DNA of 45,666 nucleotides from Acidimicrobiales bacterium (GTDB taxonomy: Bacteria > Actinomycetota > Acidimicrobiia > Acidimicrobiales > GCA-2861595), in NCBI GenBank assembly GCA_035540915.1, contig DATLFQ010000041.1, positions 1 through 45,666 of the forward strand. Direction: 5' to 3'. Below are positions 7,858 through 44,291 of this stretch, piece by piece. Both the position numbers and the translations under genes were made by a program. A model generated the notes under the pieces. It was given only the letters and a program-made list of their open reading frames with translations, was not told the origin of the DNA and did not search any database. Every line of letters begins with the position of its first letter. Position 1 is the first letter of the stretch.

Positions 7858-8072
7858 GTGGCCGCACCCCTTCCTGGGCGCCGAAAGAGGGAAGTCTACT
7901 TTCCTGCGCCGCCCGGTCCCGGGAGGCCGGCTCCCGGCCCGGGTCCCATTGCCGACGAACCGCTCCAGCCGGCGCCGTTTGTGACCGATGGAACCGTATG
8001 GGACCCCAGCCCGGCGCCTCGTGGGACCACAGACCAGGGCGTGCGGACGGAGCCCGCGGAGAGGAGCCGACG

Positions 8073-8276
8073 ATGACGAAGGCGCAACTGCAGAGCATCC
8101 GGCAGCTGGAGGGGCACACCGTGTGCCTGGCCCTCGACGGCGGAACCCGCATCGATGACGCCTACCTGGTCTCCGCCGGCCGGGGCGGGACGGCGACGCT
8201 GTGGATCTACTCCGACCAGGCCGACGTCATCGTCGACGCCGACCGGGTCCTGGAGGTCTGGCCCCGCACCGCCTGA
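8073..8276 (+). CDS. Hypothetical small protein (67 aa)
   Basis: ATG 8073 is preceded by GGAGAGGAG (8058..8066). GC3 is high after the ATG and lower before it. The translation is MTKAQLQSIRQLEGHTVCLALDGGTRIDDAYLVSAGRGGTATLWIYSDQADVIVDADRVLEVWPRTA. I recognise no family. Confidence 0.5.
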   Translation: MTKAQLQSIRQLEGHTVCLALDGGTRIDDAYLVSAGRGGTATLWIYSDQADVIVDADRVLEVWPRTA

Positions 8277-8298
8277 GCAGCTCAGGGGCGTCACGCCC
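8272..8298. terminator. Palindrome plus short GC hairpin between two convergent small ORFs
   Basis: CCTGAGCAGCTCAGG lies at 8272..8286 and GGGCG-TCA-CGCCC at 8286..8298, between the stop at 8276 (+) and the stop at 8301 (-). There is no U-tract. Confidence 0.25.
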
Positions 8299-8300
8299 GC

Positions 8301-8468
8301 TCAGCCGGCGGTCAGCTCCTGGCGAGCCCGCACGGTGGACTCCAGGAGGTCCCGGAGCCCACCGCGCTTCAACTCGGACATCACCTTGCCGGGCGGCAGG
8401 GTGCCCTTCTCCCAAGCCATCCACGAGGCCAGCAGGGCCTCGGGGTCGACCGGGGGGCGCTCGTCCAC
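8301..8468 (-). CDS. Hypothetical small protein (55 aa) immediately downstream of groEL
   Basis: This is the C-terminal part of ORF 8301..8834. GTG 8468..8466 lies 2 nt after the groEL stop. The translation is VDERPPVDPEALLASWMAWEKGTLPPGKVMSELKRGGLRDLLESTVRARQELTAG. It has protein-like composition and nearly all G/C third positions. The rest of the listed ORF overlaps groEL out of frame. Confidence 0.45.
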   Translation of the reverse strand: MDERPPVDPEALLASWMAWEKGTLPPGKVMSELKRGGLRDLLESTVRARQELTAG

Positions 8469-8470
8469 CC

Positions 8471-10186
<1,716 letters not shown>

Positions 10187-10480
10187 CTAGCTGCCGACCT
10201 TGGCCAGGATGTCGCGGCCGTTCAGGATCAGGAGGTCCTCGCCGTCGATGGTGATCTCGGTGCCGCCGTACTTGGAGTAGACGACCTTGTCGCCCACCTT
10301 CACGTCGAAGGGGATCAGCTCACCGCTGGTGTCCGAGCGCCGGCCCGGGCCGACGGCCAGTACCTCACCCTGCTGGGGCTTCTCCTTGGCCGTGTCGGGG
10401 ATCACCAGGCCCGAAGCGGTCCGCTCCTCGGACTCGTTCGGACGGACCACGATGCGGTCTTCCAGGGGTTGCAGGTTCAT
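10187..10480 (-). CDS. groES: Co-chaperonin GroES
   Basis: 97 aa. [52 protein letters not shown] ribosome-binding site lies upstream of ATG 10480. Confidence 0.97.
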
Positions 10481-10501
10481 GGGTGTCGGCCTCCGCGGTC
10501 G

Positions 10502-10528
10502 TTAGCACTCTCGACTGTCGAGTGCTAA
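10502..10528. promoter_or_regulatory. CIRCE element (HrcA operator)
   Basis: TTAGCACTC-TCGACTGTC-GAGTGCTAA is a perfect match to the TTAGCACTC-N9-GAGTGCTAA consensus. It lies 22 nt upstream of the groES start. Confidence 0.9.
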
Positions 10529-10557
10529 CGATACGCCCTGAACCGCCGCGATCGCAA
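10528..10557 (-). promoter_or_regulatory. Putative sigma-A type groES promoter
   Basis: Minus-sense TTGCGA (10557..10552), an 18-nt spacer, then TATCGT (10533..10528). It runs directly into CIRCE, the usual arrangement for HrcA control. Confidence 0.4.
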
Positions 10558-10573
10558 CCCGTCCGGTGTCGGG

Positions 10574-11575
10574 CTAGAGCACCGGCAGCGCCAGGTTGGG
10601 GTCGGCACCGGCGTCCAGCGGCGTGGGGCCGTCGCTGCGCAGCCGCCACCAGCCGGCGGCGGCGACCATGGCGGCGTTGTCGGTGCACATGGAGCGGCTG
10701 GGCAGGAACGGGCGCAGGCCGTCGGCGATGCAGGCGTCGAGGGCCCGCTCGCGCAATGAGGAGTTGGCGGCGACGCCGCCGCCCAGCACCAGCCCGGTGG
10801 CGCCCACCTCCGCCGCCGCCCGGCGGGCCTTCGTCACCAGCACGTCGACCACGGCCTCCTGGAAAGAGGCGGCCAGGTCGGCCACCGAGGCCTCCGGGTG
10901 CTTGCGGGCGTAGGTGACCACCGAGGTCTTGAGCCCGCTGAATGAGAAGTCGTAGCCCTCGTTCCGCATGCCGCGCGGGAAGGCGACGGCGTTGCGATCG
11001 CCCTGCATGGCCAGCCGGTCGATGGCCGGCCCCCCGGGGTAGCCCAGGCCGAGGAACCGGGCAACCTTGTCGAAGGCCTCGCCGGCGGCGTCGTCGATGG
11101 TGGTTCCGAGCAGGCGGTAGGCGCCGTGCCCCTCCATGGCCACGAGCATCGTGTGCGCGCCCGACACCAGCAGCACCACCAGGGGCGGCTCCAGGTCCGG
11201 TTCCTCCAGGAAGGCGGCGTAGAGGTGGGCCTCCAGGTGGTTCACCCCGACGAAGGGCACGCCCCACACCAGCGCCAGCGCCTTGGCCGCGCTCACGCCG
11301 ACGAGGAGCGACCCCACCAGCCCCGGCCCGACGGTCGCCGCCACCGCGCCGATGGCGGCCCCGTCGGTGCCCGCCTCGACCAGAGCCTGGGCCACCACCG
11401 GGTTCAGCAGCTCCACGTGGGCCCGGCTGGCCAGCTCGGGGACCACGCCCCCGAACGCCGCGTGCAGGTCGACCTGGCTGCTCACCACCGACGACAGCAC
11501 GGTGGTGCCGTCGGCGACGACGGCGGCGGCCGTCTCGTCGCAGGACGTCTCGATGCCGAGGATGCGCATGGTCAT
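10574..11575 (-). CDS. tsaD: tRNA N6-adenosine threonylcarbamoyltransferase TsaD
   Basis: MTMRILGIETSCDETAAAVV...; HLEAHLYAA; GGVAANSSLR. ATG 11575 overlaps the rimI stop (ATGA). Confidence 0.93.
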   Translation of the reverse strand: MTMRILGIETSCDETAAAVVADGTTVLSSVVSSQVDLHAAFGGVVPELASRAHVELLNPVVAQALVEAGTDGAAIGAVAATVGPGLVGSLLVGVSAAKALALVWGVPFVGVNHLEAHLYAAFLEEPDLEPPLVVLLVSGAHTMLVAMEGHGAYRLLGTTIDDAAGEAFDKVARFLGLGYPGGPAIDRLAMQGDRNAVAFPRGMRNEGYDFSFSGLKTSVVTYARKHPEASVADLAASFQEAVVDVLVTKARRAAAEVGATGLVLGGGVAANSSLRERALDACIADGLRPFLPSRSMCTDNAAMVAAAGWWRLRSDGPTPLDAGADPNLALPVL

Positions 11576-13313: not shown

Positions 13314-13888
13314 CGGCCGGCTCCGGCCGGCAGCGCCAGGTGCTCCTTGGCCCGCACGAAGTCGGCCCGCATGCCGGCCATCGGCTCGCCGGCCGATCCG
13401 GCCCGCAGGACGAAGGACGGGTGGTAGGTCGGCACCACCACCGAGGTGCCGAAGGGGTAGGCCCGGCCCCGGAGCGACCTGATCCCGGCGTCGGTGCCGA
13501 GGAGCAGGCGGGTGGCGAAGTTGCCGAGGGTGACGATCACCCGCGGCCCGATCAGCTCGATCTTGGCATCGAGAAAGGGCCGGCAGGCGGCGATCTCCTC
13601 GGGCCGGGGATCGCGGTTGCCGGGCGGCCGGCACATGACGGTGTTCGCGATGTAGACCCGGCTGCGGTCCAGGCCCAGCTCCTCGGCCAGCAGGCGGTCA
13701 AGCAGCTGGCCGGACCGCCCGACGAACGGCTCGCCCTGCAGGTCCTCGTCCCGGCCCGGCGCCTCGCCGACGAACATCAGGTCCGCAGCGGGATCGCCTC
13801 CACCGAAGACCACGGTGGTGCGTCCGGCTGCGAGCGGGCAGCGGGCGCAGGCACCGGCGTCGGTGGCCAGGTCGGCCAGCGTCACCAC
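13310..13888 (-). CDS. Uracil-DNA glycosylase, family 4 (Fe-S type)
   Basis: 192 aa with motifs [43 protein letters not shown] and YHPSF. The alternative GTG at 13885 would give a GTGA overlap with the upstream stop. Confidence 0.88.
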
Positions 13889-14877
13889 GACGACGATGGT
13901 ACCGCCGGTGCCCGGTCGGCCAGCCGGACCAGCGCCGCATTCACCTCGTGCCGGCGCTCCAGCATCGCCATGTGGCCCGCCCCCTCCAGCACGGTCAGCT
14001 CCGCGCCGGGCAGGCAGGTGGCCAGCTCCCGGGCCCGCCGCGGCGGCGTCAGGCGGTCAGCGGTGCCGACCACCACGGTGGCCGGGAGGTCGACCGACCG
14101 GAGTTCGGCCCGCAGGTCCAGCCCGACGATGTCGGGCCACAGCTCGGCCAGCACCGCTGGTGGGGTGGCCGCCGACATGAGCCGGCCCAGCTCGACCAGC
14201 CGGGGCGAGGGGCGGGGCCCGAAGCCGACCCGGGCCAGCAGGTAGGACAGGTCGTTGGCCGGCAGGTACCCGCCCGGGAGGCGGCCGGACAGCCGCATCC
14301 CGCGCGCCGCCACCGGGGTCGTCGCCGCCACCAGGGCCTGCCACCCCGGGACGGCGAACGCGAAGTTGGCGGCCGTCGACACGAAGCCCAGCCCCGCCAC
14401 CCGCTCGTCCAGGACGGCGGGGTGGTCGGCGCAGAAGCGCCCGAGCACCATGCCGCCCATCGAGTGGCCGACGACGAGTGCGTCGCGGAGGTCGAGGTCG
14501 ACGAGCACAGCGCGCAGGTCGCGAGCCAGGCGGCCCAGGCTGGACCGGTCGGAGCCGGCCTCGGACCGCCCGTGACCCCGGTGGTCGACGACCAGGACGC
14601 GGAAGCGGTCGGCCAGATCCAGGAGCTGGAAGTGCCAGGCCACTCCGGACAGGGTCACGCCGTGCAGCAGGACCAGCGGCCGGCCGCGGCCCCGCTCGAC
14701 GGCGTGGAGTCGGCCGCCGTCGTCGGTCGCCACATGGAGCCGCCGGGCGTCGGCGGGCACGGTGAAGTCGCCGTGCCGGTGGGGATCCGGCCGGTCACGC
14801 TCCCGCGTCAGCACCGCCCGCTCGGCGGCGTAGCCCGCCACCAGGCCGGCAGCCGCCGCCAGACCGGTCGCCTTCAT
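13882..14877 (-). CDS. Alpha/beta hydrolase fold protein with N-terminal hydrophobic segment
   Basis: This is the C-terminal 331 aa of ORF 13882..16194. [18 protein letters not shown]...; [11 protein letters not shown]; [10 protein letters not shown]; nucleophile elbow GHSMGG; late GAGHM. ATG 14877 overlaps the alr stop (ATGA). Confidence 0.85.
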
Positions 14878-15998
14878 CCGCCGGTGTAGGTGCGGGGCAC
14901 GCGGGCGCCGATGCCGCACAGCACCTCGTAGGCGATGGTGCCCAGGCGGTCCGCCCACTCGCCGGCGGTTATCTCCTCGCCGCCCTGCCGACCTATGAGC
15001 ACGACCTCGTCGCCGGGAGACACCTCGCCCTCCCGGCCGCAGTCGACCAGCAGCTGGTCCATGGTGACGGTCCCGGCGATGGGGCGGCGGCGGCCGCCGA
15101 CCAGCACCTGGCCCCCGACCTCGGACAGCCGGCGGGGCACGCCGTCGGCGTAGCCCAGCGGCACGGTGGCCACCAGTGACCCCGCAGTGACGGTGTAGCG
15201 CAGCCCGTAGGACACCGCCTCGTCGACCGGCGGGCGGCGCACCATGGCCACCCGGGCCCGCAGGGAGAGTGCCGGGCGCAGGTCGACCAAACCGGCCCGC
15301 GCGGGACCGGGCGGCTCGCCGTACATCGCGATGCCGCACCGGACCATGTCGAGGCGCGCCGCCGGGTGGGCGAGGGCGGCGGCGGAGTTCGCGGCATGGG
15401 CGACGAGGGCCGGCTGCACCGTCCCGACGGTCAGGCGGACCTCCTCGAACAGCGCCAGCTGCCCGGCGGTGAAGTCGTCCCGGGCAGGTTCGTCGGCCAC
15501 GGCCAGATGGGTCCACAGGCCGGCCAGGCGGAGCCGGGGTGCGGCCAGGACCGCCCTGGCCAGGGCCGGCGCGTCGGCCGGCGCGGCACCGACGCGGTGC
15601 ATGCCCGTGTCCACCTTCAGGTGGACGTCCAACCCCTCGGGACCGGCAGCGGCGGCGGCCGCCTCGATGCCGGCGACGGTGTACACCGTGGGGGTGAGGC
15701 GGTGGGCCGCCGCCTCGCCCATCGCCTCGGGCGGCGGCTCGGAGAGCAGCAGCACCGGCGCCCCGACGCCGCCGTCGCGGAGCGCGACCCCCTCCTCGAC
15801 CAGCGCCACGGCCAGCCAGTCCGCACCCGCCGCCAGAGCCGCCCGGGCCACGGGCTCGGCGCCATGGCCGTAGCCGTCCGCCTTCACCACCGCGCACAAC
15901 GCAGCCGGTGCCACCCGGCGGCGGAGCTGCTCGACGTTGTGGCGGATGGCCTCCAGGTCCACCTCGGCCCACGCGTGCCGCCAGGAGCGGCCGCTCAT
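14874..15998 (-). CDS. alr: Alanine racemase
   Basis: This is the C-terminal 374 aa of ORF 14874..17177. WAEVDLEAIRHNV; PLP-lysine motif AVVKADGYGHG; GYADG; TVTMDQ. ATG 15998 shares one nucleotide with the nnr stop (TAATG). Confidence 0.93.
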   Translation of the reverse strand: MSGRSWRHAWAEVDLEAIRHNVEQLRRRVAPAALCAVVKADGYGHGAEPVARAALAAGADWLAVALVEEGVALRDGGVGAPVLLLSEPPPEAMGEAAAHRLTPTVYTVAGIEAAAAAAGPEGLDVHLKVDTGMHRVGAAPADAPALARAVLAAPRLRLAGLWTHLAVADEPARDDFTAGQLALFEEVRLTVGTVQPALVAHAANSAAALAHPAARLDMVRCGIAMYGEPPGPARAGLVDLRPALSLRARVAMVRRPPVDEAVSYGLRYTVTAGSLVATVPLGYADGVPRRLSEVGGQVLVGGRRRPIAGTVTMDQLLVDCGREGEVSPGDEVVLIGRQGGEEITAGEWADRLGTIAYEVLCGIGARVPRTYTGG

Positions 15999-17374
15999 TA
16001 CCGCTTCCGGCCGGCGAGGCGCAGGGGCGGGGCGTCGGCCGGTGGCGCGACCGCTGACAGCCACCGCGGCACCAGGTCCAGCAGGTCCCCGGCCACCATC
16101 CCACGAGCCGGCCCGAGGCGTGCGGCCGCACCGTGGACGTGGGCCGCCAGCGCGGCCGCCTGCAGTGCCGGCACCCCCTGGGCCAGGAAGGCACCTACCA
16201 GGCCGGCCAGCACGTCGCCGGTGCCGGCCGTGGCCAGCCGGGGGGAGCCGGAGGTCACCAGCAACGCCTCGCCACCTGGCTCGGCCACCACGGTGGTCGG
16301 GCCCTTCAGCAACACGATGGCACCGGTCCGCAGCGCCAGCGAGCGGGCCGCGGCCAGGCGGTCCGGGCCGGGCTCGGCGCCGGTCAGCCGCGCGTACTCG
16401 CCGTCGTGGGGTGTCAGCACGGTCTGGGAGGTCGTCCGCTCCAGCTCCACCAGCGCGTCGGCGTCCACGACCAGCGGCACCCGCACCCGGTCGACCAGGC
16501 GGCGCACCTCCCGGGCCTGCTCGGGACTGCGGCCGATGCCCGGACCGACGACGATGGCCCGGCAGCGGCTGGCGGCGGCCAGCGTGGCGGCGGCCCAGCC
16601 CTCGGCCGGCAGGGCGATGCCCACGAACTCCGAGCCGGCCGGCTGCTGGTCGAGGGGGACCCCAGGGACACCGAGTCGGACGGAGCCGGCGCCGCCGACG
16701 AGGGCGCTGCGCGCCACCAGGACGGGCGCCCCCATGAGGCCAGGCGACCCGGCCACGACGAAGACGGCGCCGTGCCACTTGTGGGCGTCGCGGTCGCGCC
16801 CGGGGAGGATGGCGGCCACGTCGGCGTCCTCGACGACCGAGGCGAACGCGCCGCTGGCGTCCAGGCCGATGTCGGCCACCTCCACCTCGCCCGCACGACC
16901 CGGCCCCCGGCCGAACAGCAGGCCCGGCTTGAGCGCGGCGAAGGTGACCGTGGCCGCCGCCCGGACCGACCGGTCCCCGCACTGCCCGGTCGCCGCATCG
17001 AGCCCCGAGGGGACGTCGACGGCGAGCACCGGGGCGCCCCCCGGGTCGGGGGCCACGTAGTCCCCCTTGAAGCCGGTGCCGTAGGCCGCGTCGACGACCA
17101 GGTCGCAGGGCGGGAGCCGGTCCGGAGCGCCCTCGGCGTCCAGCACCAGCACCCGGGCGCCCCGCCGCCGCAACCACCGGGCGGCCGCCCGGCCGTCGGC
17201 TCCGTTGTTGCCCTTCCCGGCGACCACGACCACCCGTCGCCCGTAGGCGCCGCCCAGCCGCCGAAGCGCGGCCCGGGCCACCGCGGCGCCGGCCCGCTCG
17301 ACCAGCACCTCCGTCGGCTCGGGCGCGGCCGCATCCAGCGCCCGCAGCTCGGCCGGCTCCAGGACGGGGATCAC
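15998..17374 (-). CDS. nnr: Bifunctional NAD(P)H-hydrate repair enzyme Nnr (epimerase/dehydratase)
   Basis: 458 aa. YjeF-N domain: VVVAGKGNNGADG, DAAYGTGF. Carbohydrate-kinase-like C domain: HKWHGAVFVVAGS, TAGTGDVLAG. GTG 17374 overlaps the acpS stop (GTGA). Confidence 0.9.
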   Translation of the reverse strand: MIPVLEPAELRALDAAAPEPTEVLVERAGAAVARAALRRLGGAYGRRVVVVAGKGNNGADGRAAARWLRRRGARVLVLDAEGAPDRLPPCDLVVDAAYGTGFKGDYVAPDPGGAPVLAVDVPSGLDAATGQCGDRSVRAAATVTFAALKPGLLFGRGPGRAGEVEVADIGLDASGAFASVVEDADVAAILPGRDRDAHKWHGAVFVVAGSPGLMGAPVLVARSALVGGAGSVRLGVPGVPLDQQPAGSEFVGIALPAEGWAAATLAAASRCRAIVVGPGIGRSPEQAREVRRLVDRVRVPLVVDADALVELERTTSQTVLTPHDGEYARLTGAEPGPDRLAAARSLALRTGAIVLLKGPTTVVAEPGGEALLVTSGSPRLATAGTGDVLAGLVGAFLAQGVPALQAAALAAHVHGAAARLGPARGMVAGDLLDLVPRWLSAVAPPADAPPLRLAGRKR

Positions 17375-17736
17375 AGCGCGGCGACCACGGCGCCGGCCAG
17401 GTGGTCGGTGTGGGTCAGCGAGACCCGGAAGCCGCTGACGCCGAGGCGTGTCGCCAGCGCCGCGGCCGCGCCGGAGACGGCCAACGACGGCGCGCCGCTG
17501 GGCGCGGTGCGTACCTCCACGTCGTGGAAGCCGAAGGCGCCGAGTCCCACGCCGAGTGCCTTCATGGTCGCCTCCTTGGCGGCGAAGCGGGCGGCCAACC
17601 GCGGCGCCGCGTCGCGGCTGCGCCGACCGTCGGCCTGCTCGCCGGAGGTGAACAGGCGCCCCTCCAGGCCGGGCGAGCGCGCCAGCGCCCGCCGGAAGCG
17701 GTCGACGTCCACCGCGTCGATGCCGATCCCGATCAC
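17371..17736 (-). CDS. acpS: Holo-[acyl-carrier-protein] synthase
   Basis: 121 aa. (V)IGIGIDAVDVDRFRRAL...FAAKEATMKALG...SLTHTDHLAGAVV. GTG 17736 overlaps the upstream stop (GTGA). Confidence 0.9.
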   Translation of the reverse strand: MIGIGIDAVDVDRFRRALARSPGLEGRLFTSGEQADGRRSRDAAPRLAARFAAKEATMKALGVGLGAFGFHDVEVRTAPSGAPSLAVSGAAAALATRLGVSGFRVSLTHTDHLAGAVVAAL

Positions 17737-20700
17737 CGGCTCCGCCAGTGGTCGGCCAGGAGGTGGACAGGCGACGACAAGAGCTCGACCATCGGCACCG
17801 TCCCCAGCACCTCCTCGTCGAAACCGGGCTCGGTCTCGGTGACCGCGTCGACCAGCGCCTCGAAGCGGTCGCGGTAGCCGGCCAGGACGGCCCGGGCGTC
17901 GGCCGGGGCCAGCCGCTCGTGGAAGCGGACGTGCAGCAGCGTCATCCCGGTGACCTGGCTGTCCTTGGTCTCGGGGACCAGCACCAGCTCACGGCCGTCG
18001 CGGCGTCCCCGTGCGACGGTCACTTCCCGCTCGCTGGCCGCTCGGTGCTTGGTGCCCAGCAGGGCCGGCTGGCGCTCGGTCCGCGACGGCAGCGTGAGGG
18101 CGACGCCGCCTCGGTCCACCACCGCGATGGTGGCCGGCCCCTCGCCGGCGTCGCCGTCGATGCGGTAGCGGGTGAACCCGGTGACCTCGGCCACGGCCGG
18201 GCCCAGTGCGGCCAGCGTCCGGAGCGCGCGGTACCCCAGCCGGTCGCGGCCCGCCCCCGCGGCGAGGACCTCCTCGACGAGCGGGGCCCGGAACAGCGCC
18301 TCCTCCGAGCGGGAGATGCCGACCGTCACCGTCTTGGCCTGGTGCTTGATGGCGTCGATGGGCCGGGTCAGCTCGTCGATGGCGCGGGTCAGCGCGTCGG
18401 TGAGGTCCTGCAGCAGCGCGCTCGGGCTGCCGATCTTGCCCAGCTCCAACTCGTAGGACTCCAGAGGGGCGACGCCCCGGGCGTAGCGGAGCAGCTCGGT
18501 GAGCCGGACGGCGGTGGCCGCCTCCAGGTGCCCGTCGTAGGCACCGGACTGCAGGCCGGTCAGGAACTCGCGGGCCGGCGCCTCGACGTGGCGGCGCAAC
18601 GACCGCAGGGGGTCGCCCGCCACGTCGGCCGACGAGGCGACCGCCTCGATGGCGGCCCGGGCCTCGCGCAGCGGGCGGGCCTGTGCGTCGATGGCGAGGG
18701 CCGCCTCGTAGCCGAAGAGGTGGCCGGCCATGGCCGACAGCACGAAGGCCAGGGCCGGGTGGCAGGCCGGCACCTCGATGACGTGGAGGGCGGCCGAGAA
18801 GCGGCTGTCGGCCTGGCTGGCGATCACGACGGGGGCCGCCTTGTGGGCCCGGTAGATGGCCACCTCCTTGGCCACGTCGTCGGCGTTGGGTCCGGACAGG
18901 CCGGCCGCGCACACCAGCACCATGGGCTCGGAGGACAGGTCGATGTGCTTCTTGTCCTCGGTGGCGTCGCAGGCGATCGACTTGTAGCAGAGTTCGGACA
19001 GCTTGATCCGCAGCTCGGCGGCCGCGATGCGGTTGGGCCCGCTGCCGACCACCGCCCAGTGGCGCCGGGGCGGGCCCACCTGCTGTGCGGCGGCGGCGAT
19101 GGCGTCCCGCCCGGCCAGCACGGCCTCCATGGCGGCCGGAAGCTCGCGCAGCCCGACGAGCAGCTCGGAGGCCCGGCGGCGGTCGCCGTCGCCGGCCTCC
19201 TCGGCGAGTGCCACCGCCAACAGGGCACCGGCCGCCACCTGCGCGTAGAACGCCTTGGTCGACGGCACCGCCATCTCGATGTCGCGGCCGTCGGAGGTGT
19301 AGAGGACGCCGTCGGCCCGCGCCGCCAGCTCGCTGTTCCGCCGGTTGACGATCGCCACCACGGCGGCCCCCCGGGAGCGAACCAGGTCGACGGTCCGGTT
19401 GGTGTCGGTCGTGGTGCCGGACTGGCTCACGGCGACCACCAGCGTGTCGGCCATGTCGTCGTGCAGCCCGAAGCCCGACAGCTCGGTGGCGAGCCGGGCG
19501 TCGACGACCAGCGCCGAACCGGGCGCGACGCGGGCGTAGACGGCGGCCAGGCTCTCGGCCGCCACCGCCGCCGTGCCCTGCCCCACCGCCACCACGCGAC
19601 GGATGGTGCCGGCGGCCAGGCGGCGGCGCACGTCGGGCGGGAGCGTGCCGTCAGCCAGCCGCACGCCGACCAGGCCGTCCGCCTCGACGAGCTTGCCGCG
19701 CAGCGTCTTGCGGAACGAGGAGGGCGCCTCGGCGATCTCCTTGAGCAGGAAGTGCGGCAGGCCGCGACGGTCGATGTCGCGAGTGGTGATCTCGGCGGTC
19801 TGCACCTCCGCGTCGACGACCGGCAAGGGACGGCCGTCGTAGCCGCGTCGCTCGATGCCCGCCAGTTCCCCGGCCTGCGCCCCGTCGAGCACGACGACCT
19901 GGCCGGGTCGACCGCCGTCGGTCGTCGCCTCGCCGTCCATGCGCACGTACCGGGCGGTGTGCTCGACCAGCCCGTAGGCCTCGCTGGCCACCACGAAGGC
20001 GTCCTCGGCCAGGCCGATGTTCAGCGCCTGGCCGCTGCCGCGCAGCGCCAGGACCAGCCGGTCGGGTTCGTCGCCGATGCTGGCGGCGACGGCCACCGAC
20101 CCTTCGAGGCCCGCCACCGCGTCGAGGAACGCGTCGGCCGGTCCCCGGCCGCCCGCCATGGCGCGCGACACCAGGACGGGGACCACCTTGGAGTCGGTGG
20201 TGACCTCGGGAGCAATCCGCAGGCCGGCCGAGGCCACGATCTGGGCGTAGTTGTCGACGTCGCCGTTGACGGCGGCCACCACGTACGGGTGGGAGCCGTC
20301 GGCGCCCACCTCCTCGGCGTTGACCGGGTGGGCGTTGGCCTGGGAGATGATGCCGACGCTGGCCCAGCGGGTGTGGCCCAGCACCACGGCCCGTGCGCCG
20401 GGGGCGGACAGCGCCCGGCGCAGGAGCCCGTCACCGGCCACCGCCGCCCGGAGGTGGCGGACGTTGTCGCCCAGCTCGCCCACCTCCGCGGCCGCCTTGT
20501 ACACGAAGGCGAGGCGCCCGGCCGGGCACCGCACCGCCATCGAGCCGAAGAGGCGGTCGGCGGCCCGTGACCGGAGCAGGGCCGCCACCTCCGGCTCGTC
20601 CAGATCGAGCTCATGGCCGTCGACCAGGACATGGATGCCGGCCGAGTCCCGGCCCCGCACCTCCAGGCGGTCGAGAGCCGACAGGGCCGACTGGACCGAG

Positions 20701-21134
20701 GAGTACCCGGCGAGCGCCGCCGGGCCGGCCGCCGGACCGGCCAGCTCGGCGACGGCCCGGGCGTGGCCCAGGCGGTCCCGGCGGATTGCCCACAGGGCGT
20801 CCTTGACCCGCACCAGGCTCGCGTTGAGCGCCTCGAGCCCTGCGGCGTCCGGGCGAAGGCTCCCGCTGTCCAGTGCCGCCTCCAGCTCGGCGACCGACCG
20901 GTCGACGGCCGCCGCCCGGCCGTCCACGGCCGCCGCCAGCGCCGGCTCTGCGATCAGGGCCAGCAGGCCCGGCACGCCGTTCAACAGCCGGGCCGACGCC
21001 TCCAGCGCCTCGGCGGTGGCATCGAGCGATGCGGGGTCGGCGGCGGCGACCGCCTCCAGCCCGGCGAGTACCTCGGCGGCAGGCGGTGGGGGGCGCCGGC
21101 TGGGCCGGCGCACGATGGCGACGATGCCGCACAT
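17733..21134 (-). CDS. Atypical 1133-aa GlmS-like protein (class-II glutamine amidotransferase + two SIS domains + extra modules)
   Basis: Single ORF. MCGIV at residues 1-5, RGRDSAG 160-166, HTRWAS 254-259, NAHP 267-270, SQSGTTTDT 570-578, PSTKAF 624-629, EDKKH 726-730, AKTVTVG 933-939. It sits in the glmS position between glmM and acpS. See findings. Confidence 0.85.
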   Translation of the reverse strand: MCGIVAIVRRPSRRPPPPAAEVLAGLEAVAAADPASLDATAEALEASARLLNGVPGLLALIAEPALAAAVDGRAAAVDRSVAELEAALDSGSLRPDAAGLEALNASLVRVKDALWAIRRDRLGHARAVAELAGPAAGPAALAGYSSVQSALSALDRLEVRGRDSAGIHVLVDGHELDLDEPEVAALLRSRAADRLFGSMAVRCPAGRLAFVYKAAAEVGELGDNVRHLRAAVAGDGLLRRALSAPGARAVVLGHTRWASVGIISQANAHPVNAEEVGADGSHPYVVAAVNGDVDNYAQIVASAGLRIAPEVTTDSKVVPVLVSRAMAGGRGPADAFLDAVAGLEGSVAVAASIGDEPDRLVLALRGSGQALNIGLAEDAFVVASEAYGLVEHTARYVRMDGEATTDGGRPGQVVVLDGAQAGELAGIERRGYDGRPLPVVDAEVQTAEITTRDIDRRGLPHFLLKEIAEAPSSFRKTLRGKLVEADGLVGVRLADGTLPPDVRRRLAAGTIRRVVAVGQGTAAVAAESLAAVYARVAPGSALVVDARLATELSGFGLHDDMADTLVVAVSQSGTTTDTNRTVDLVRSRGAAVVAIVNRRNSELAARADGVLYTSDGRDIEMAVPSTKAFYAQVAAGALLAVALAEEAGDGDRRRASELLVGLRELPAAMEAVLAGRDAIAAAAQQVGPPRRHWAVVGSGPNRIAAAELRIKLSELCYKSIACDATEDKKHIDLSSEPMVLVCAAGLSGPNADDVAKEVAIYRAHKAAPVVIASQADSRFSAALHVIEVPACHPALAFVLSAMAGHLFGYEAALAIDAQARPLREARAAIEAVASSADVAGDPLRSLRRHVEAPAREFLTGLQSGAYDGHLEAATAVRLTELLRYARGVAPLESYELELGKIGSPSALLQDLTDALTRAIDELTRPIDAIKHQAKTVTVGISRSEEALFRAPLVEEVLAAGAGRDRLGYRALRTLAALGPAVAEVTGFTRYRIDGDAGEGPATIAVVDRGGVALTLPSRTERQPALLGTKHRAASEREVTVARGRRDGRELVLVPETKDSQVTGMTLLHVRFHERLAPADARAVLAGYRDRFEALVDAVTETEPGFDEEVLGTVPMVELLSSPVHLLADHWRSR

Positions 21135-21147
21135 GGGCGGACGGAGC

Positions 21148-22512
21148 CTACTTCGGCCCGGGTCGGCGCCCGGCTACCGACCGGGCCGCCCGCTCGATCT
21201 CCTCGACCAACCGGTCGGCCGCCTCGAGGGCCCGCTTCTCGTCGAAGGCCTCGACCATCACCCGCACCACCGGCTCGGTGCCGCTGGGCCGGACCAGCAC
21301 GCGGCCGTCGTCGCCGAGCAGGGCGTCCTCCTCCGCCTCGGCCCACCGCACGGCGGCGACCACCTCGGCCGCCCGAGCCGGCACCGCCACGTTGCGCAGG
21401 ATCTGCGGCACCCGGGTCATGGCCTCTGCGGCCAGCTGCGCCAGGGGACGGCCCGAGCGCACCATGAGGTCGAGCACCTGCAGCCCCGTGAGGAGTCCGT
21501 CGCCCGTCGTGGCCAGGTCGAAGAAGATGAGGTGGCCCGACTGCTCGCCGCCGAGCGAGTACCCGCCCAGGTCGAGCGCCTCCAGGACATGGCGGTCGCC
21601 GACCTCGACCTCCAGGGGCGAGATGGCGGCCGACATCAGCGCCTGCCGCAACCCCAGGTTGGCCATCACGGTGATCACCACGGTGCCCTCGGCCAGCAGG
21701 CCCCGGGCGTGCCGGTCGCGAGCCAGCATGCCCAACAGCTGGTCGCCGTCGACCAGCTCGCCGGCGGCGTCGACGGCCAGGACCCGGTCGGCATCGCCGT
21801 CGAAGGCCAGGCCGACGTCGGCACCGGTCTGCACGACCGCCGCCGCCAACGCCTCGGGATGCGTCGAGCCGCACTTCACGTTGATGTTCGTCCCGTCGGG
21901 CTCGTCGGCGATCACGTGGACCGTCGCACCCAGATCGGAGAACACCGGCGGCGCGACCGCCGAGGCGGCGCCGTTGGCGCAGTCGAGCACCACGCGCAGC
22001 CCGTCCAGCCGCCGGCCCTCCAGAGACCTCGCCAGGTGCTCGAGGTAGGCGGGCACGACCCAGTCGGCGGGCCAGAGCGCGCCGACCGACGCCGTCCCCG
22101 AGCGTGGGCGGTCGCCTTCGAGGAGCGACTGAAGTTCGCGCTCGATGGCCGCCTCGGTCTCGTCGTCGAGCTTGTAGCCGCCGGCCGCGAACAGCTTGAT
22201 CCCGTTGTCCGAGAAAGCGTTGTGCGAGGCCGACACCACGGCCGCCGGGACCTGGCGGGCCCGGGACGCGAAAGCCACCCCGGGGGTGGGCAGGACGCCG
22301 ACGTCGACGACCGGCGCCCCTTCGGCCGCCAACCCGGCCGACAGCGCCGCCTGCAGCATGGGCCCCGACGCCCGGGGGTCACGCCCGACCAGGAACCCGC
22401 GGATGCCCAGCACCCGGGCCACGGCCCGGCCGAGGGCGAGCGCCACCTCGGGCGTCAGGTCGACGTTGGCGACACCGCGGATGCCGTCGGTGCCGAACCG
22501 GGGCACCGCCAC
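21148..22512 (-). CDS. glmM: Phosphoglucosamine mutase
   Basis: 454 aa. FGTDGIRG; phosphoserine loop SASHNAFSDNGIK; FDGDADR; GGEQSGH. Confidence 0.96.
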   Translation of the reverse strand: MAVPRFGTDGIRGVANVDLTPEVALALGRAVARVLGIRGFLVGRDPRASGPMLQAALSAGLAAEGAPVVDVGVLPTPGVAFASRARQVPAAVVSASHNAFSDNGIKLFAAGGYKLDDETEAAIERELQSLLEGDRPRSGTASVGALWPADWVVPAYLEHLARSLEGRRLDGLRVVLDCANGAASAVAPPVFSDLGATVHVIADEPDGTNINVKCGSTHPEALAAAVVQTGADVGLAFDGDADRVLAVDAAGELVDGDQLLGMLARDRHARGLLAEGTVVITVMANLGLRQALMSAAISPLEVEVGDRHVLEALDLGGYSLGGEQSGHLIFFDLATTGDGLLTGLQVLDLMVRSGRPLAQLAAEAMTRVPQILRNVAVPARAAEVVAAVRWAEAEEDALLGDDGRVLVRPSGTEPVVRVMVEAFDEKRALEAADRLVEEIERAARSVAGRRPGPK

Positions 22513-22516
22513 CGGC

Positions 22517-22909
22517 TCAGCGCTTGGAGTACTGGGGCGCCTTGCGGGCCTTCTTCAGGCCGTACTTCTTGCTCTCCTTCTCGCGGGCGTCGCGGGTGAG
22601 CAGGCCGGCCCGCTTGAGGGGCGTGCGCTGCTCGGGGTCGAGCTCGGCCAGCGCCCGGGCCAGCCCGAGGCGCAGGGCGCCCGCCTGGCCCGAGATGCCG
22701 CCCCCGTCGAGCGTGGCGTCCACGTCGTAGCCCTCGGCCGTGTTGGTGAGCCGCAGCGGCTCGGTGGCCAGCATCCGCTGGGTCGCCGAGGGGAAGTAGG
22801 CGTCGATCGGCCGGCGGTTGATGGTGACCGTGCCGGTGCCGGGGCGGACCCGGACGCGGGCAACGGCCCGCTTGCGGCGGCCGGTGGACTGCTGGAGCGG
22901 CTTGGGCAT
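22517..22909 (-). CDS. rpsI: 30S ribosomal protein S9
   Basis: 130 aa. [10 protein letters not shown]...[19 protein letters not shown]...[12 protein letters not shown]. Confidence 0.97.
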
Positions 22910-23426: not shown

Positions 23427-24206
23427 TCAAGGATACGGCGTGGCGACAGGCCCGGCAACCGGGGCGTCGCCGGCGTAGCTCACCGACCACAGGCACAGGC
23501 CGTGGGGCGGTGCCGGGCCGGGCACGCCGGCCCGGTCGCGCGCACGGACGATCGACGCCACCTCCCCGGCCCGCACCCGCCCCCGGCCGACGGCCACCAG
23601 CAGCCCGACGACCGAACGCACCATCTGATGGCAGAACGCGGAGGCCTCGATCTCGAACCGCAGGAGGCCAGGTTCCACCTCGGCCCAGCCGGCCCGCCGG
23701 ACCACCCGCACCAGCGAGGGGTCGGGGCCGGGCGGCCGCCGGCAGAACGACGACCAGTCGTGCTCGCCGATCAGCGGGTCGCAGGCCAGCTGCATGGAGC
23801 CCAGGTCGAGCGGGTGCTCGACGTGCCAGGTGGTGGCGGCCAGGAACGGGTCGGGGACCGGCCGGTTGAGGACGCCGTAGCGGTAGAGGCGACCGGTCGC
23901 CGAGCGGCGGGCGTCGAAACCGGGCGCAACCGTCTCGGCGGCCCGCACGACGACGGACGGGCGCAGCATGGCGTTGACCGACCGCTGCAGGCCGTCCAGG
24001 TCGACCTCGGCGGCCGGCGTGTCGAAGTGGACCACCTGGCCCCAGGCGTGGACGCCCGTGTCGGTCCGCCCGGCGCACACCAGGCGCACGGGGTGGCCGA
24101 GGACCCGCCCGACCGCCTCGGCCAGGGTGCCCCCGACCGTGCGCACGCCGGCGTTCGCGGCGAAGCCATGGAACCCGCGCCCGTCGTACGCCACGAGCAG
24201 TCGCAC
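23427..24206 (-). CDS. truA: tRNA pseudouridine(38-40) synthase TruA
   Basis: 259 aa. VAYDGRGFHGFA; catalytic GRTDTGVHA; RLYRY; FCHQMVRSVVG. Confidence 0.94.
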   Translation of the reverse strand: MRLLVAYDGRGFHGFAANAGVRTVGGTLAEAVGRVLGHPVRLVCAGRTDTGVHAWGQVVHFDTPAAEVDLDGLQRSVNAMLRPSVVVRAAETVAPGFDARRSATGRLYRYGVLNRPVPDPFLAATTWHVEHPLDLGSMQLACDPLIGEHDWSSFCRRPPGPDPSLVRVVRRAGWAEVEPGLLRFEIEASAFCHQMVRSVVGLLVAVGRGRVRAGEVASIVRARDRAGVPGPAPPHGLCLWSVSYAGDAPVAGPVATPYP

Positions 24207-24629: not shown

Positions 24630-25571
24630 TCAGATCCCCTTGGTCCGCAGGCTGAGCCCGCGCTCGTCGAGCTTCAGCAGGACCTCGTCGAGCGACTTCT
24701 GGCCGAAGTTGGTGATGGCCAGCAGGTCGTCGATGGTCTTGTCGACCAGCTCGCCGATCGTGTTGACCTGCGCCCGCTTCAAGCAGTTGCGGGGCCGCTC
24801 GGACAGGTCCAGGTCCTCGATGGGCAGGTCCAGGTCGGGCGAGCCGCTGGTGGTGGCGCTGACGTCGCCCAGCTCCAGGCCCTGCGGAGCCTCGCTCATG
24901 TCGGCCACCAGGCCGACCAGCGACCGCAAGGTGTCGCCGGCCGAGGCCAGCGCCTCGCGCGGCGAGATGGACCCGTCGGTCTCGATGTCCATGACCAGGC
25001 GGTCGTAGTTGGTGGACATCTCGACCCGGGTCGGCTCGACCGTGAAGGACACCCGGCGAACAGGCGAGAAGATGGAGTCGATTGGCAGCACGCCGATGGT
25101 CGTGGACTTCTTGTTGCGGTCGGCCGAGACGTAGCCCCGGCCCCGCTCGACGGTGAGGTCGACGGCCAGGCGGCCCTTGCCGTTCAGAGTGGCGATGTGC
25201 AGCTCGGGGTTGAGCACCTCGACGTCGTTGGACGGCTGGATGTCACGGGCCGTCACCGCTCCCGGGCCCCGGGCGTCGATGCGCAAAACGACGGACTCGT
25301 CGGACTGGCTCGACAGCACCAGGTCCTTGAGGTTCAAGATGAGGTCGGTCACGTCCTCCTTGACCCCGGGAAGGGTGGTGAACTCGTGGAGGGCGTCGTC
25401 GAAGCGCACCTGGGTGATGGCGGCGCCGGGGATCGACGAAAGCAGGACCCGGCGCAGCGAATTGCCCAGGGTGTGGCCGAACCCCGGCTCGAGGGGGCCG
25501 ATGGCGAACCGCTGGCGGTGGCCGTCGGCTTCGTCGACGGGTTCGACGCTGGGGCGCTGGATAATCAGCAT
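24630..25571 (-). CDS. rpoA: DNA-directed RNA polymerase subunit alpha
   Basis: This is the C-terminal 313 aa of ORF 24630..25730, starting [14 protein letters not shown] 25571 is preceded by [28 protein letters not shown]; C-terminal domain [23 protein letters not shown]. Confidence 0.96.
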
Positions 25572-25629
25572 GCAACTCCTTCTGGCGGGAGGCAGCCCCT
25601 CCGCGCCACGGGTCCTTACGGAAATAGTG

Positions 25630-26256
25630 CTACTTGGAGTACAGCTCGACGATGAGCTGCTCGCGCACCGGCACGTCGATGTGCTCGCGGCGCGGGAGGT
25701 CCCGCACGGTGACCTGGTAGCCCTCGTCACCGGCCTCCAGCCAGGGCGGCACCTGGCGGTCCAACGTGTCGACGTTGTGGCGGACGACGATGAGCGAGCG
25801 CGAACGCTCCTTGAGCGCCACCACCTGGCCGGGTCGCACCCGGTAGCTGGGGATGTCGACCCGCTTGCCGTTGACCGTGACGTGGCCGTGGCGCACCAGC
25901 TGGCGGGCCTGGTTGCGGCTGGCGCCCCAGCCGGCCCGGTAGACCACGTTGTCCAGCCGCTGCTCGAGCATGCGCAGGAGGTTCTCGCCGGTGATTCCCT
26001 GCTGGCGGTTGGCCTCCTCGTAGAGGCGGGCGAACTGGGCCTCCAGCACGCCGTAGATGCGCCGGGCCTTCTGCTTCTCGCGCAGCTGGTTCAGGTACTC
26101 CGAGCCCTGGCGCATGCGGTCCCGACCGTGCTCGCCGGGCGGGTAGGGCCGGCGCTCGATCGGGCACTTCATCGAGTCGCACTTGGGGCCCTTGAGAAAC
26201 AGCTTCATCTTCTCCCGGCGGCACAGGCGGCAGACGGGGCCGGTGTAGCGGGCCAT
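25630..26256 (-). CDS. rpsD: 30S ribosomal protein S4
   Basis: 208 aa. [26 protein letters not shown]...; S4 domain RLDNVVYRAGW. Confidence 0.97.
   Translation of the reverse strand: MARYTGPVCRLCRREKMKLFLKGPKCDSMKCPIERRPYPPGEHGRDRMRQGSEYLNQLREKQKARRIYGVLEAQFARLYEEANRQQGITGENLLRMLEQRLDNVVYRAGWGASRNQARQLVRHGHVTVNGKRVDIPSYRVRPGQVVALKERSRSLIVVRHNVDTLDRQVPPWLEAGDEGYQVTVRDLPRREHIDVPVREQLIVELYSK

Positions 26257-26653: not shown

Positions 26654-26654
<1 letters not shown>
26256..26654 (-). CDS. rpsK: 30S ribosomal protein S11
   Basis: This is the C-terminal 132 aa of ORF 26256..27128. [39 protein letters not shown]...[13 protein letters not shown] 26654 shares one nucleotide with the rpsM stop (TAATG). 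Confidence 0.96.
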
Positions 26655-27031
<377 letters not shown>

Positions 27032-40988: not shown

Positions 40989-42182
<1,194 letters not shown>

Positions 42183-42191
42183 AGCTCCTCT

Positions 42192-44291
<2,100 letters not shown>

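Follow-up and report, generated by a model that had tools for sequence, protein, structure and literature searches.

The locus described here raises the question of whether a protein of nearly twice the usual length can be the GlmS of its organism and, if so, what its additional parts might do. We analysed positions 1 to 45,666 of contig DATLFQ010000041.1 from an Acidimicrobiales bacterium (assembly GCA_035540915.1), and this whole stretch of 45.7 kb is referred to as the window. Between glmM and acpS lies a single uninterrupted open reading frame for 1,133 amino acids, as stated in an initial annotation made from the sequence alone; the reading frame is on the minus strand, and we call its product long-form GlmS. 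GlmS catalyses the committed, usually essential entry step to the amino sugars of peptidoglycan and the envelope, and is a drug target. Our results suggest that long-form GlmS is probably an active GlmS, and the main one in Acidimicrobiia, to which regulatory or assembly modules would have been added in cis.

17733..21134, minus strand: whole open reading frame of long-form glmS, 1,133 amino acids plus TGA; matches Pfam SIS and GATase_6, and NCBIfam GlmS models over residues 246–815, below their cutoffs

A GlmS core with intact active sites

The gene starts with ATG, stops with TGA and contains no internal stop. Read on the plus strand, the interval 17733..21134 has no open reading frame and the frame is non-coding; that reading was rejected. 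The G+C content of the whole window is 72%, and that of the third codon positions of long-form glmS is 95%, like that of the flanking genes. At 1,133 residues against 609 in Escherichia coli GlmS, the protein is indeed nearly twice the canonical length. Its catalytic core comprises the following segments.

21108..21134, minus strand: Met, Cys nucleophile (MCGIV) and strand beta-1 of the N-terminal nucleophile (Ntn) glutaminase, residues 1–9; Cys2 and Gly3 invariant
19761..20723, minus strand: class-II glutaminase core and linker, residues 138–458 (RGRDSAG, HTRWAS, NGDVDN, TTDSK); GATase_6 match at 249–385
19185..19760, minus strand: SIS subdomain 1, residues 459–650 (GQGTA, SQSGTTTDT, PSTKAF); Pfam SIS match at 512–642
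18690..19184, minus strand: SIS subdomain 2, residues 651–815 (ELRIKLSE, EDKKH); invariant Lys485, Glu488 and His504 counterparts, and Foldseek template-modelling (TM) score

All of the GlmS landmarks listed in the initial annotation were found at the residue numbers given there: MCGIV (1–5), RGRDSAG (160–166), HTRWAS (254–259), NAHP (267–270), NGDVDNY (290–296), TTDSK (312–316), SQSGTTTDT (570–578), PSTKAF (624–629), ELRIKLSE (707–714), EDKKH (726–730) and AKTVTVG (933–939). Profile searches and an alignment with E. coli GlmS bear out their canonical order and the assignment as a GlmS-type class-II amidotransferase with two SIS domains. Residues 249–385 match PF13522 (GATase_6) with 35.8 bits (cutoff 27), and residues 512–642 match PF01380 (SIS) with 73.7 bits (cutoff 25; E = 1.6e-20). 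A search of PDB sequences aligned residues 249–815 with residues 66–591 of E. coli GlmS, to which the protein is 29% identical in the alignment. The NagB-II model gave 51 bits against a cutoff of 430.

Residues of the two active sites were compared in an alignment of E. coli K-12 GlmS, long-form GlmS and six diverse relatives; mature E. coli numbering is used for all counterparts. Counterparts of Cys1, Arg26, Arg73, Trp74, Asn98, Gly99 and Asp123 in the glutaminase site and channel are invariant, as are those of Thr302, Ser347, Gln348, Ser349, Thr352 and Ser401 in the sugar-phosphate site and of Lys485, Glu488, His504 and Lys603 in the isomerase site, the last being Lys934 of the long form. 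The counterpart of Thr76 is Ser. The same picture was obtained in a second alignment of 18 diverse family members, reaching down to 30% identity, in which Cys2 and Gly3 (numbering of the long form) are invariant, as they are in E. coli GlmS. Because both active sites and the ammonia-channel Trp are intact, glutamine-dependent conversion of fructose-6-phosphate (Fru6P) to glucosamine-6-phosphate (GlcN6P) is the most likely activity.

These alignments also bear on the idea that the protein has lost catalysis and serves as a GlmS-derived scaffold or sensor in the regulation of some other enzyme or process. Its large non-catalytic additions, which include a sensor-like domain, and its scores under family cutoffs would suit such a role. 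However, pseudoenzymes normally lose catalytic residues, whereas here the tested catalytic and ligand residues of both sites are invariant to ~30% identity, with Trp74 and the Lys603 tail strictly kept. We regard a pseudoenzyme as very improbable.

The core fold agrees with this assignment. An AlphaFold2 (AF2) model of the whole protein has a mean predicted local distance difference test score (pLDDT) of 83 and a predicted TM score of 0.75. Foldseek with this model returned GlmS and GFAT structures only, with human GFAT1 and E. coli GlmS at E ~1e-26 and target-normalized TM scores of 0.81–0.85 to isolated isomerase-domain structures. Model confidence is lower at residues 258–268, 717–731 and 927–944, which include the His504-counterpart loop and the catalytic tail. 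In GlmS, the His504 loop and the C-tail are mobile elements, and the low pLDDT at tail residues 927–944 may reflect a flexible segment.

A large family, class-wide in Acidimicrobiia

The layout is not peculiar to the source genome; it belongs to a large, deep family that is present class-wide in Acidimicrobiia. A protein search recovered the window's own protein and more than 120 clusters at 62–100% identity, all of 1,085–1,160 amino acids and all from Acidimicrobiales, Acidimicrobiia or Actinomycetota. Among GTDB species genomes, a scan yielded at least 596 confirmed long-form matches, the best 80 of which are essentially all Acidimicrobiia. The full length is retained across the class, including cultured Aquihabitans sp. 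G128, marine metagenome-assembled genomes (MAGs) and the complete 2.35–2.38-Mb chromosomes KE-4 and TE-7. In a search of 1.84 billion representatives, 944 matched with E < 1e-30, and full-length relatives of 1,100–1,250 amino acids extend down to ~30–35% identity.

The initial annotation had allowed that the reading frame might be an artefact of assembly, and more generally an error of assembly or gene calling could have fused glmS with its neighbours. Nothing beyond the unusual length speaks for such a fusion. The same architecture occurs in those more than 120 independent clusters, in the confirmed species-genome matches, in complete genomes (Aquihabitans sp. G128, KE-4, TE-7) and in full-length relatives down to ~30% identity; furthermore, the extra blocks alternate with catalytic segments along the chain and are folded confidently by AF2. 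Family-wide conservation thus refutes the fusion, to which we assign next to no probability.

The genes that follow and precede long-form glmS are relevant to its role and are listed here.

21148..22512, minus strand: glmM, phosphoglucosamine mutase, directly upstream; TIGR01455, 499 bits (cutoff 447)
17371..17736, minus strand: acpS, GTG start overlapping the long-form glmS TGA (GTGA); NF000832, 111 bits (cutoff 107)
15998..17374, minus strand: nnr, YjeF-type NAD(P)HX epimerase/dehydratase, start overlapping the acpS stop (GTGA); profile matches
14874..15998, minus strand: alr, alanine racemase coding region, downstream of nnr; Pfam Ala_racemase_N and Ala_racemase_C

Synteny was counted in the best 80 of the at least 596 GTDB matches. 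The order rplM–rpsI–glmM–[long form]–acpS–nnr is kept in ~66 of these 80 related genomes, with glmM upstream in 66 loci, acpS downstream in 66, nnr in 63, rpsI in 61 and rplM in 55. No second GlmS-like gene was found within ±8 kb in the 80 loci or in the window. A housekeeping role is argued from the position between glmM and acpS–nnr–alr in a cluster of cell-wall and housekeeping genes, which is the usual slot of glmS, the overlap with acpS, class-wide retention that includes small genomes and the lack of a nearby copy; the long form is most likely the main, and possibly the only, GlmS of Acidimicrobiia.

In a few Acidimicrobiia genomes, the long form has other housekeeping genes as its neighbours. 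An example is locus L087 (Acidimicrobiales MAG JAVKSQ010000011.1, 10001–13441), where it follows the atp operon and a GNAT/2′-5′ RNA ligase-like gene; two genes away is a glpX-type fructose-1,6-bisphosphatase, the producer of Fru6P, which is the substrate of GlmS. In locus L032, from a MAG labelled Solirubrobacterales, the long form (8001–11462) runs in the opposite orientation to its neighbours glmM/rpsI and acpS/nnr, and we read this as a local inversion within the conserved cluster. The labels of three other MAGs (Planctomycetota, L053; Acidobacteria, L048; Bifidobacterium, L051) are doubtful because their proteins are 58–59% identical to the Acidimicrobiia form, and these genomes look mis-binned or mislabelled.

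Additional blocks and the internal tail

In the alignment with E. coli GlmS, the ~524 extra residues fall into five or six blocks, not into the three that had been described.

Residues 10–144: ~133 amino acids, directly after strand 1
Residues 172–211: ~45 amino acids
Residues 273–283: ~10 amino acids
Residues 418–445: ~20 amino acids
Residues 816–925: ~110 amino acids, between SIS-2 and the tail
Residues 940–1133: ~195 amino acids, after the tail

The modules formed by these residues, and the tail, map to the gene as follows.

20724..21107, minus strand: N-terminal helical insert, residues 10–137, three long helices; a gap in E. coli GlmS
18375..18689, minus strand: helical insert between SIS-2 and tail, residues 816–920; a gap in E. 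coli GlmS
18300..18374, minus strand: internalized catalytic tail TRPIDAIKHQAKTVTVGISR, residues 921–945; aligns to E. coli AKSVTVE
17910..18299, minus strand: linker helices and PAS-like alpha/beta domain, residues 946–1075; AF2 and weak Foldseek matches
17736..17909, minus strand: C-terminal helical segment, residues 1076–1133; AF2

In the AF2 model, the N-terminal insert consists of helices at residues 19–27, 34–50, 53–62, 64–90 and 97–132 (pLDDT mostly 82–96), and its three long helices pack against canonical helix 1. Within the class this insert shows 48% identity, a value that drops to 18% over the deep family. The insert ahead of the tail is helical at 820–834, 842–862, 872–885, 891–898 and 904–932.

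The tail segment, TRPIDAIKHQAKTVTVGISR, is the most conserved of the family (identity 95% in the class and 75% over the deep family), and the motif HQAKTVTVG with its Lys is invariant. This motif lies 195 residues from the C terminus here and is terminal in relatives of ~940 amino acids; the Pseudodesulfovibrio proteins end 5 residues past it, exactly at the canonical GlmS end point. The proposal that AKTVTVG is the counterpart of the GlmS C-tail is thereby upheld.

Because full-model Foldseek returned only GlmS and GFAT, a separate AF2 model was made of the C-terminal residues 816–1133. This model (pLDDT 89) shows two linker helices, an alpha-beta-beta-alpha-alpha-beta-beta-beta domain (residues ~968–1072, pLDDT ~90) and five short terminal helices. 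The strands are at 981–993, 1002–1010, 1039–1042, 1049–1057 and 1060–1071, and the terminal helices at 1077–1086, 1090–1099, 1107–1112, 1115–1120 and 1123–1132. Residues ~968–1072 are a possible PAS-like domain of the sensor type. The best Foldseek match of these 318 residues, a weak one, is L-GDH180 (7jsr; E = 2.6e-3, query-normalized TM score 0.33, 15% identity). A profile search of the same residues against PDB sequences gave no meaningful match, and when the extra blocks were compared by themselves with Pfam (E ≤ 10), only noise came up (TMP_3, DUF2264 and HAMP fragments).

The within-class identity of the PAS-like module is 70%, on par with that of the catalytic cores (67–77%), which argues that the extra modules are under constraint. 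The C-terminal module is also separable, since forms of ~940 amino acids that lack the post-tail part are nested within the family. It is dispensable in some lineages, which fits an accessory or regulatory role.

Proposed mechanism

The features described above suggest how long-form GlmS might work. Cys1 of the Ntn glutaminase domain would release ammonia from glutamine, and the two-SIS isomerase site (counterparts of Lys485, Glu488, His504 and Lys603) would use this ammonia to form GlcN6P, which the product of the adjacent glmM would carry on toward UDP-N-acetylglucosamine (UDP-GlcNAc). The helical inserts and the C-terminal PAS-like domain would be add-on modules with a controlling role in cis; they would either sense a metabolite and act on the mobile tail or lid, or set the oligomeric state. 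The Lys603-bearing tail is bracketed by a helical insert and the PAS-like domain, and this bracketing, together with the constraint on the modules and their separability, led us to propose that tail/lid closure is what they control. Ligand binding or oligomerization through the modules would then set closure, and hence the coupling of both sites.

A more specific form of this proposal is that the long form has replaced the ~600-amino-acid GlmS throughout Acidimicrobiia, and that its PAS-like sensor and helical modules gate the tail/lid or the oligomer in response to a metabolite of the UDP-GlcNAc or GlcN6P type. We put this forward tentatively, as a possible rather than an expected outcome. 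Such gating would constitute a hitherto undescribed kind of protein-level feedback on bacterial hexosamine entry, in place of control by a ribozyme, a small RNA or GlmR.

Copies outside Acidimicrobiia and the case for a paralogue

Several observations weigh against an active, housekeeping GlmS with cis-acting modules. The curated GlmS models score well below their cutoffs (TIGR01135, 218.6 against 418.05; NF001484, 242.8 against 381 in the NCBIfam search), and the counterpart of Ser303 is Ala (Ala522) throughout the family. Foldseek matches to PAS, LOV, GAF and Cache domains are weak (E = 0.02–0.15, target-normalized TM score 0.17–0.45), so ‘PAS-like’ is a tentative label. Finally, copies in Actinomycetes and Proteobacteria are found away from the glmS slot, in some cases within polysaccharide loci, so the whole family cannot simply be equated with the housekeeping GlmS.

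Two distant branches were recovered in the homologue search, one with Magnetospirillum, Niveispirillum, Rhodocista, Azospirillaceae, Polyangiaceae, Desulfomonilaceae and Pseudodesulfovibrio and the other, in Actinomycetes, with Micromonospora, Actinoplanes, Actinophytocola, Phytohabitans, Cellulomonas, Blastococcus, Kineosporiaceae and Streptosporangiaceae. A rough neighbour-joining tree was built from 582 core columns with E. coli GlmS as the root; in it, a long branch leads to the long family, which is monophyletic. The Acidimicrobiia clade is sister to the Actinomycetes clade; the other groups are a Proteobacteria/Desulfobacterota/Myxococcota clade, within which the ~940-amino-acid forms are nested, and a separate low-G+C clade. 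The tree has one outgroup and comes from a distance method, and is therefore indicative only.

The neighbourhoods of these copies suggest a different explanation for the family, namely that long-form GlmS is a neofunctionalized or dedicated paralogue supplying an amino sugar (GlcN6P or another aminated ketose phosphate) for an envelope polysaccharide, with a normal-length glmS elsewhere as the housekeeping gene. In Pseudodesulfovibrio cashew, the gene follows a CpsG-type phosphomannomutase gene and ManC and precedes the exosortase genes EpsH/EpsI and glycosyltransferase genes, that is, it lies in an exopolysaccharide locus. The Blastococcus copy is within a cell-wall polysaccharide cluster, and the copies in Micromonospora, Cellulomonas and Niveispirillum are outside the glmS slot. 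The copies in Actinomycetes, Proteobacteria, Desulfobacterota and Myxococcota are accessory ones. The profile scores under the GlmS cutoffs and the family-wide replacement of Ser303 by Ala would also suit a paralogue. In Acidimicrobiia, however, the gene lies between glmM and acpS–nnr–alr in ~66 of 80 genomes, with its stop overlapping the acpS start, and no other GlmS-like gene is nearby in the 80 loci. The remaining Fru6P-binding and catalytic residues are all invariant, and a gene of 3.4 kb has been retained in small genomes. We therefore consider a paralogue unlikely as an account of the Acidimicrobiia gene, although a credible one, and favour an active main GlmS in that class.

Individual loci outside Acidimicrobiia offered further details. 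In P. cashew (locus L082, CP046400.1, 10001–12826), the form is of ~941 amino acids, lies in a PEP-CTERM/exosortase exopolysaccharide locus with a sigma-54 activator upstream, and may be a dedicated amino-sugar supply for the exopolysaccharide. A conserved partnership with GlmM outside Acidimicrobiia was not supported, the Pseudodesulfovibrio neighbour being a CpsG-type phosphomannomutase. The Micromonospora copy adjoins a gene for a SIS protein of 349 amino acids; in Micromonospora siamensis (locus L084, LT607751.1), this Pfam SIS protein is encoded at 13404–14453, convergent with and next to the long form, and might be a partner of the GlcN6P deaminase or deglycase type. The neighbourhoods of the Cellulomonas, Niveispirillum and Polyangiaceae MAG copies give no clear functional hint. 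Three proteins of the low-G+C clade (P0181, P0186 and P0267), which are rich in Gln, Asn and Lys, have 17 to more than 60 residues predicted ahead of the catalytic Cys (alignment columns 1–110). These leaders are either mis-called starts or a propeptide that is removed to expose Cys1; removal of a propeptide exposes Cys1 in some PurF enzymes.

Comparison with known systems

Canonical GlmS (E. coli, 609 amino acids; PDB 1JXA, 2J6H and 4AMV) shares with the long form the N-terminal Cys, the class-II glutaminase fold, the two SIS subdomains, the Lys-bearing AK(S/T)VTV tail, the tested catalytic and ligand residues, and adjacency of the gene to glmM and alr. By contrast, the long form is ~524 residues longer, carries its tail internally instead of at the C terminus, has Ala for Ser303, is 29% identical, scores under the curated GlmS cutoffs and has no glmS ribozyme or other Rfam element. 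Because the residue and fold comparisons agree with GlmS, whereas its scores lie under the hidden Markov model cutoffs and its tail motif, terminal in the ~940-amino-acid relatives, is internal, we place it in a distinct long-form subfamily of the GlmS superfamily. SIS-only enzymes (NagB-II, AgaS and FrlB) have the SIS phosphosugar-binding motifs in common with it; at ~330–350 amino acids, they lack a glutaminase domain and a Lys tail.

Eukaryotic GFAT1 and GFAT2 (~680–700 amino acids; PDB 6R4E and related entries), the top Foldseek matches at E ~1e-26, also have an enlarged GlmS core. GFAT is subject to feedback inhibition by UDP-GlcNAc and is regulated through an inserted loop, and we propose, by analogy, that this parallels the cis-regulation of the long form. 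In GFAT the inserted sequence is a short loop within the glutaminase domain, and it has no sequence relation to the extra parts of the long form. GFAT has none of the helical bundle after strand 1, the helical insert before the tail or the domain after the tail, all of which are present in the long form.

Most of what is known about the control of GlmS comes from Firmicutes (ribozyme, GlmR), enterobacteria (GlmY/GlmZ) and eukaryotes (UDP-GlcNAc feedback). GlmR (YvcK) of Bacillus subtilis is described as important for diverting carbon into peptidoglycan synthesis (PMC6171935), and the GlmR–GlmS pair offers a Gram-positive precedent for protein-level control of flux into UDP-GlcNAc. Unlike GlmR, a separate protein that acts in trans, the modules of the long form sit in cis. 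L-GDH180 of Mycobacterium smegmatis (PDB 7JSR) has helical motifs and ACT-like/PAS-type modules that were proposed to be metabolic sensors (PMC8175468). It is likewise an enzyme of Actinomycetota, in central nitrogen metabolism, with sensor-type add-ons, and is the best Foldseek match of the C-terminal 318 residues. Its catalytic domain is unrelated to GlmS and, because the structural match is weak (TM score 0.33, 15% identity), we treat it as an analogy and not as a relative.

Annotation and significance

The initial annotation recognized no characterized enzyme with this layout, and our searches agree, having found no curated family model or paper that covers it. It had also raised the possibility that homologues of the same length already form a described family: the family exists and is large and deep, but its members are generically named and no paper on it was found. 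Specifically, we found no dedicated Pfam or NCBIfam model for the long form, and a literature search on GlmS in Acidimicrobiia and on GlmS extensions and paralogues found no paper describing it. A paper on signature indels of Acidimicrobiia (PMC5962788) does not mention long-form GlmS, and the supplementary tables of a paper on an Acidimicrobiia isolate have no glmS entry. The long form is thus widespread yet uncharacterized, with core chemistry as expected for GlmS.

The members of the more than 120 clusters are named ‘SIS domain-containing protein’ by the Prokaryotic Genome Annotation Pipeline (PGAP), since the GlmS model scores below its cutoff, and GlmS by the Joint Genome Institute. Owing to the generic PGAP name, automated pathway reconstructions may list glmS as absent from Acidimicrobiia, an annotation that our reading, if true, would correct. 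In that case, a class-wide, double-length GlmS with an internal tail and a putative sensor would represent a new way to wire regulation into an enzyme, and at least two or three protein modules would lie beyond present Pfam coverage. The gene should be of note to specialists in cell walls and amino sugars.

Genomic context in the window

Thirteen nucleotides separate the glmM stop from the ATG of long-form glmS, and start and stop codons overlap by 4 nt (GTGA) at 17733–17736 (long-form glmS/acpS) and at 17371–17374 (acpS/nnr). Both overlaps suggest translational coupling. Given the short spacer and the GTGA overlaps, the genes from glmM to nnr most likely share a transcript, with translation of the overlapping ones coupled. 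By contrast, the spacer, gctccgtccgccc, has no obvious Shine–Dalgarno sequence. An Rfam search of the whole window found no family at gathering score, including the glmS ribozyme RF00234, so the window appears to hold no such ribozyme; a tRNA search of the whole window found none.

On the same strand, long-form glmS is preceded by the last part of the ribosomal-protein cluster (from fusA and tuf via rpsM to rpoA) and then by truA, rplM, rpsI and glmM. Positions of some of these genes are as follows.

42192–44291, minus strand: fusA
40989–42182, minus strand: tuf
26654–27031, minus strand: rpsM
24630–25730, minus strand: rpoA
23427–24206, minus strand: truA

Window positions 22517–45342 on the minus strand constitute the end of the ribosomal-protein and translation supercluster, including rplM and rpsI, which places long-form glmS in a core housekeeping region. 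Past the gene, again on the same strand, come acpS, nnr, alr, an alpha/beta hydrolase gene, a UDG-family glycosylase gene, a tsaB-like gene, a GNAT gene and tsaD, followed by groEL, an IMPDH-family gene, guaA and a UvrD/PcrA helicase gene. A mechanically called reading frame of 770 amino acids at 13882–16194 on the minus strand is not a single gene. Its C-terminal 289 amino acids are the alpha/beta hydrolase (13882–14751), and 14874–15998, in a different frame, encodes the alanine racemase.

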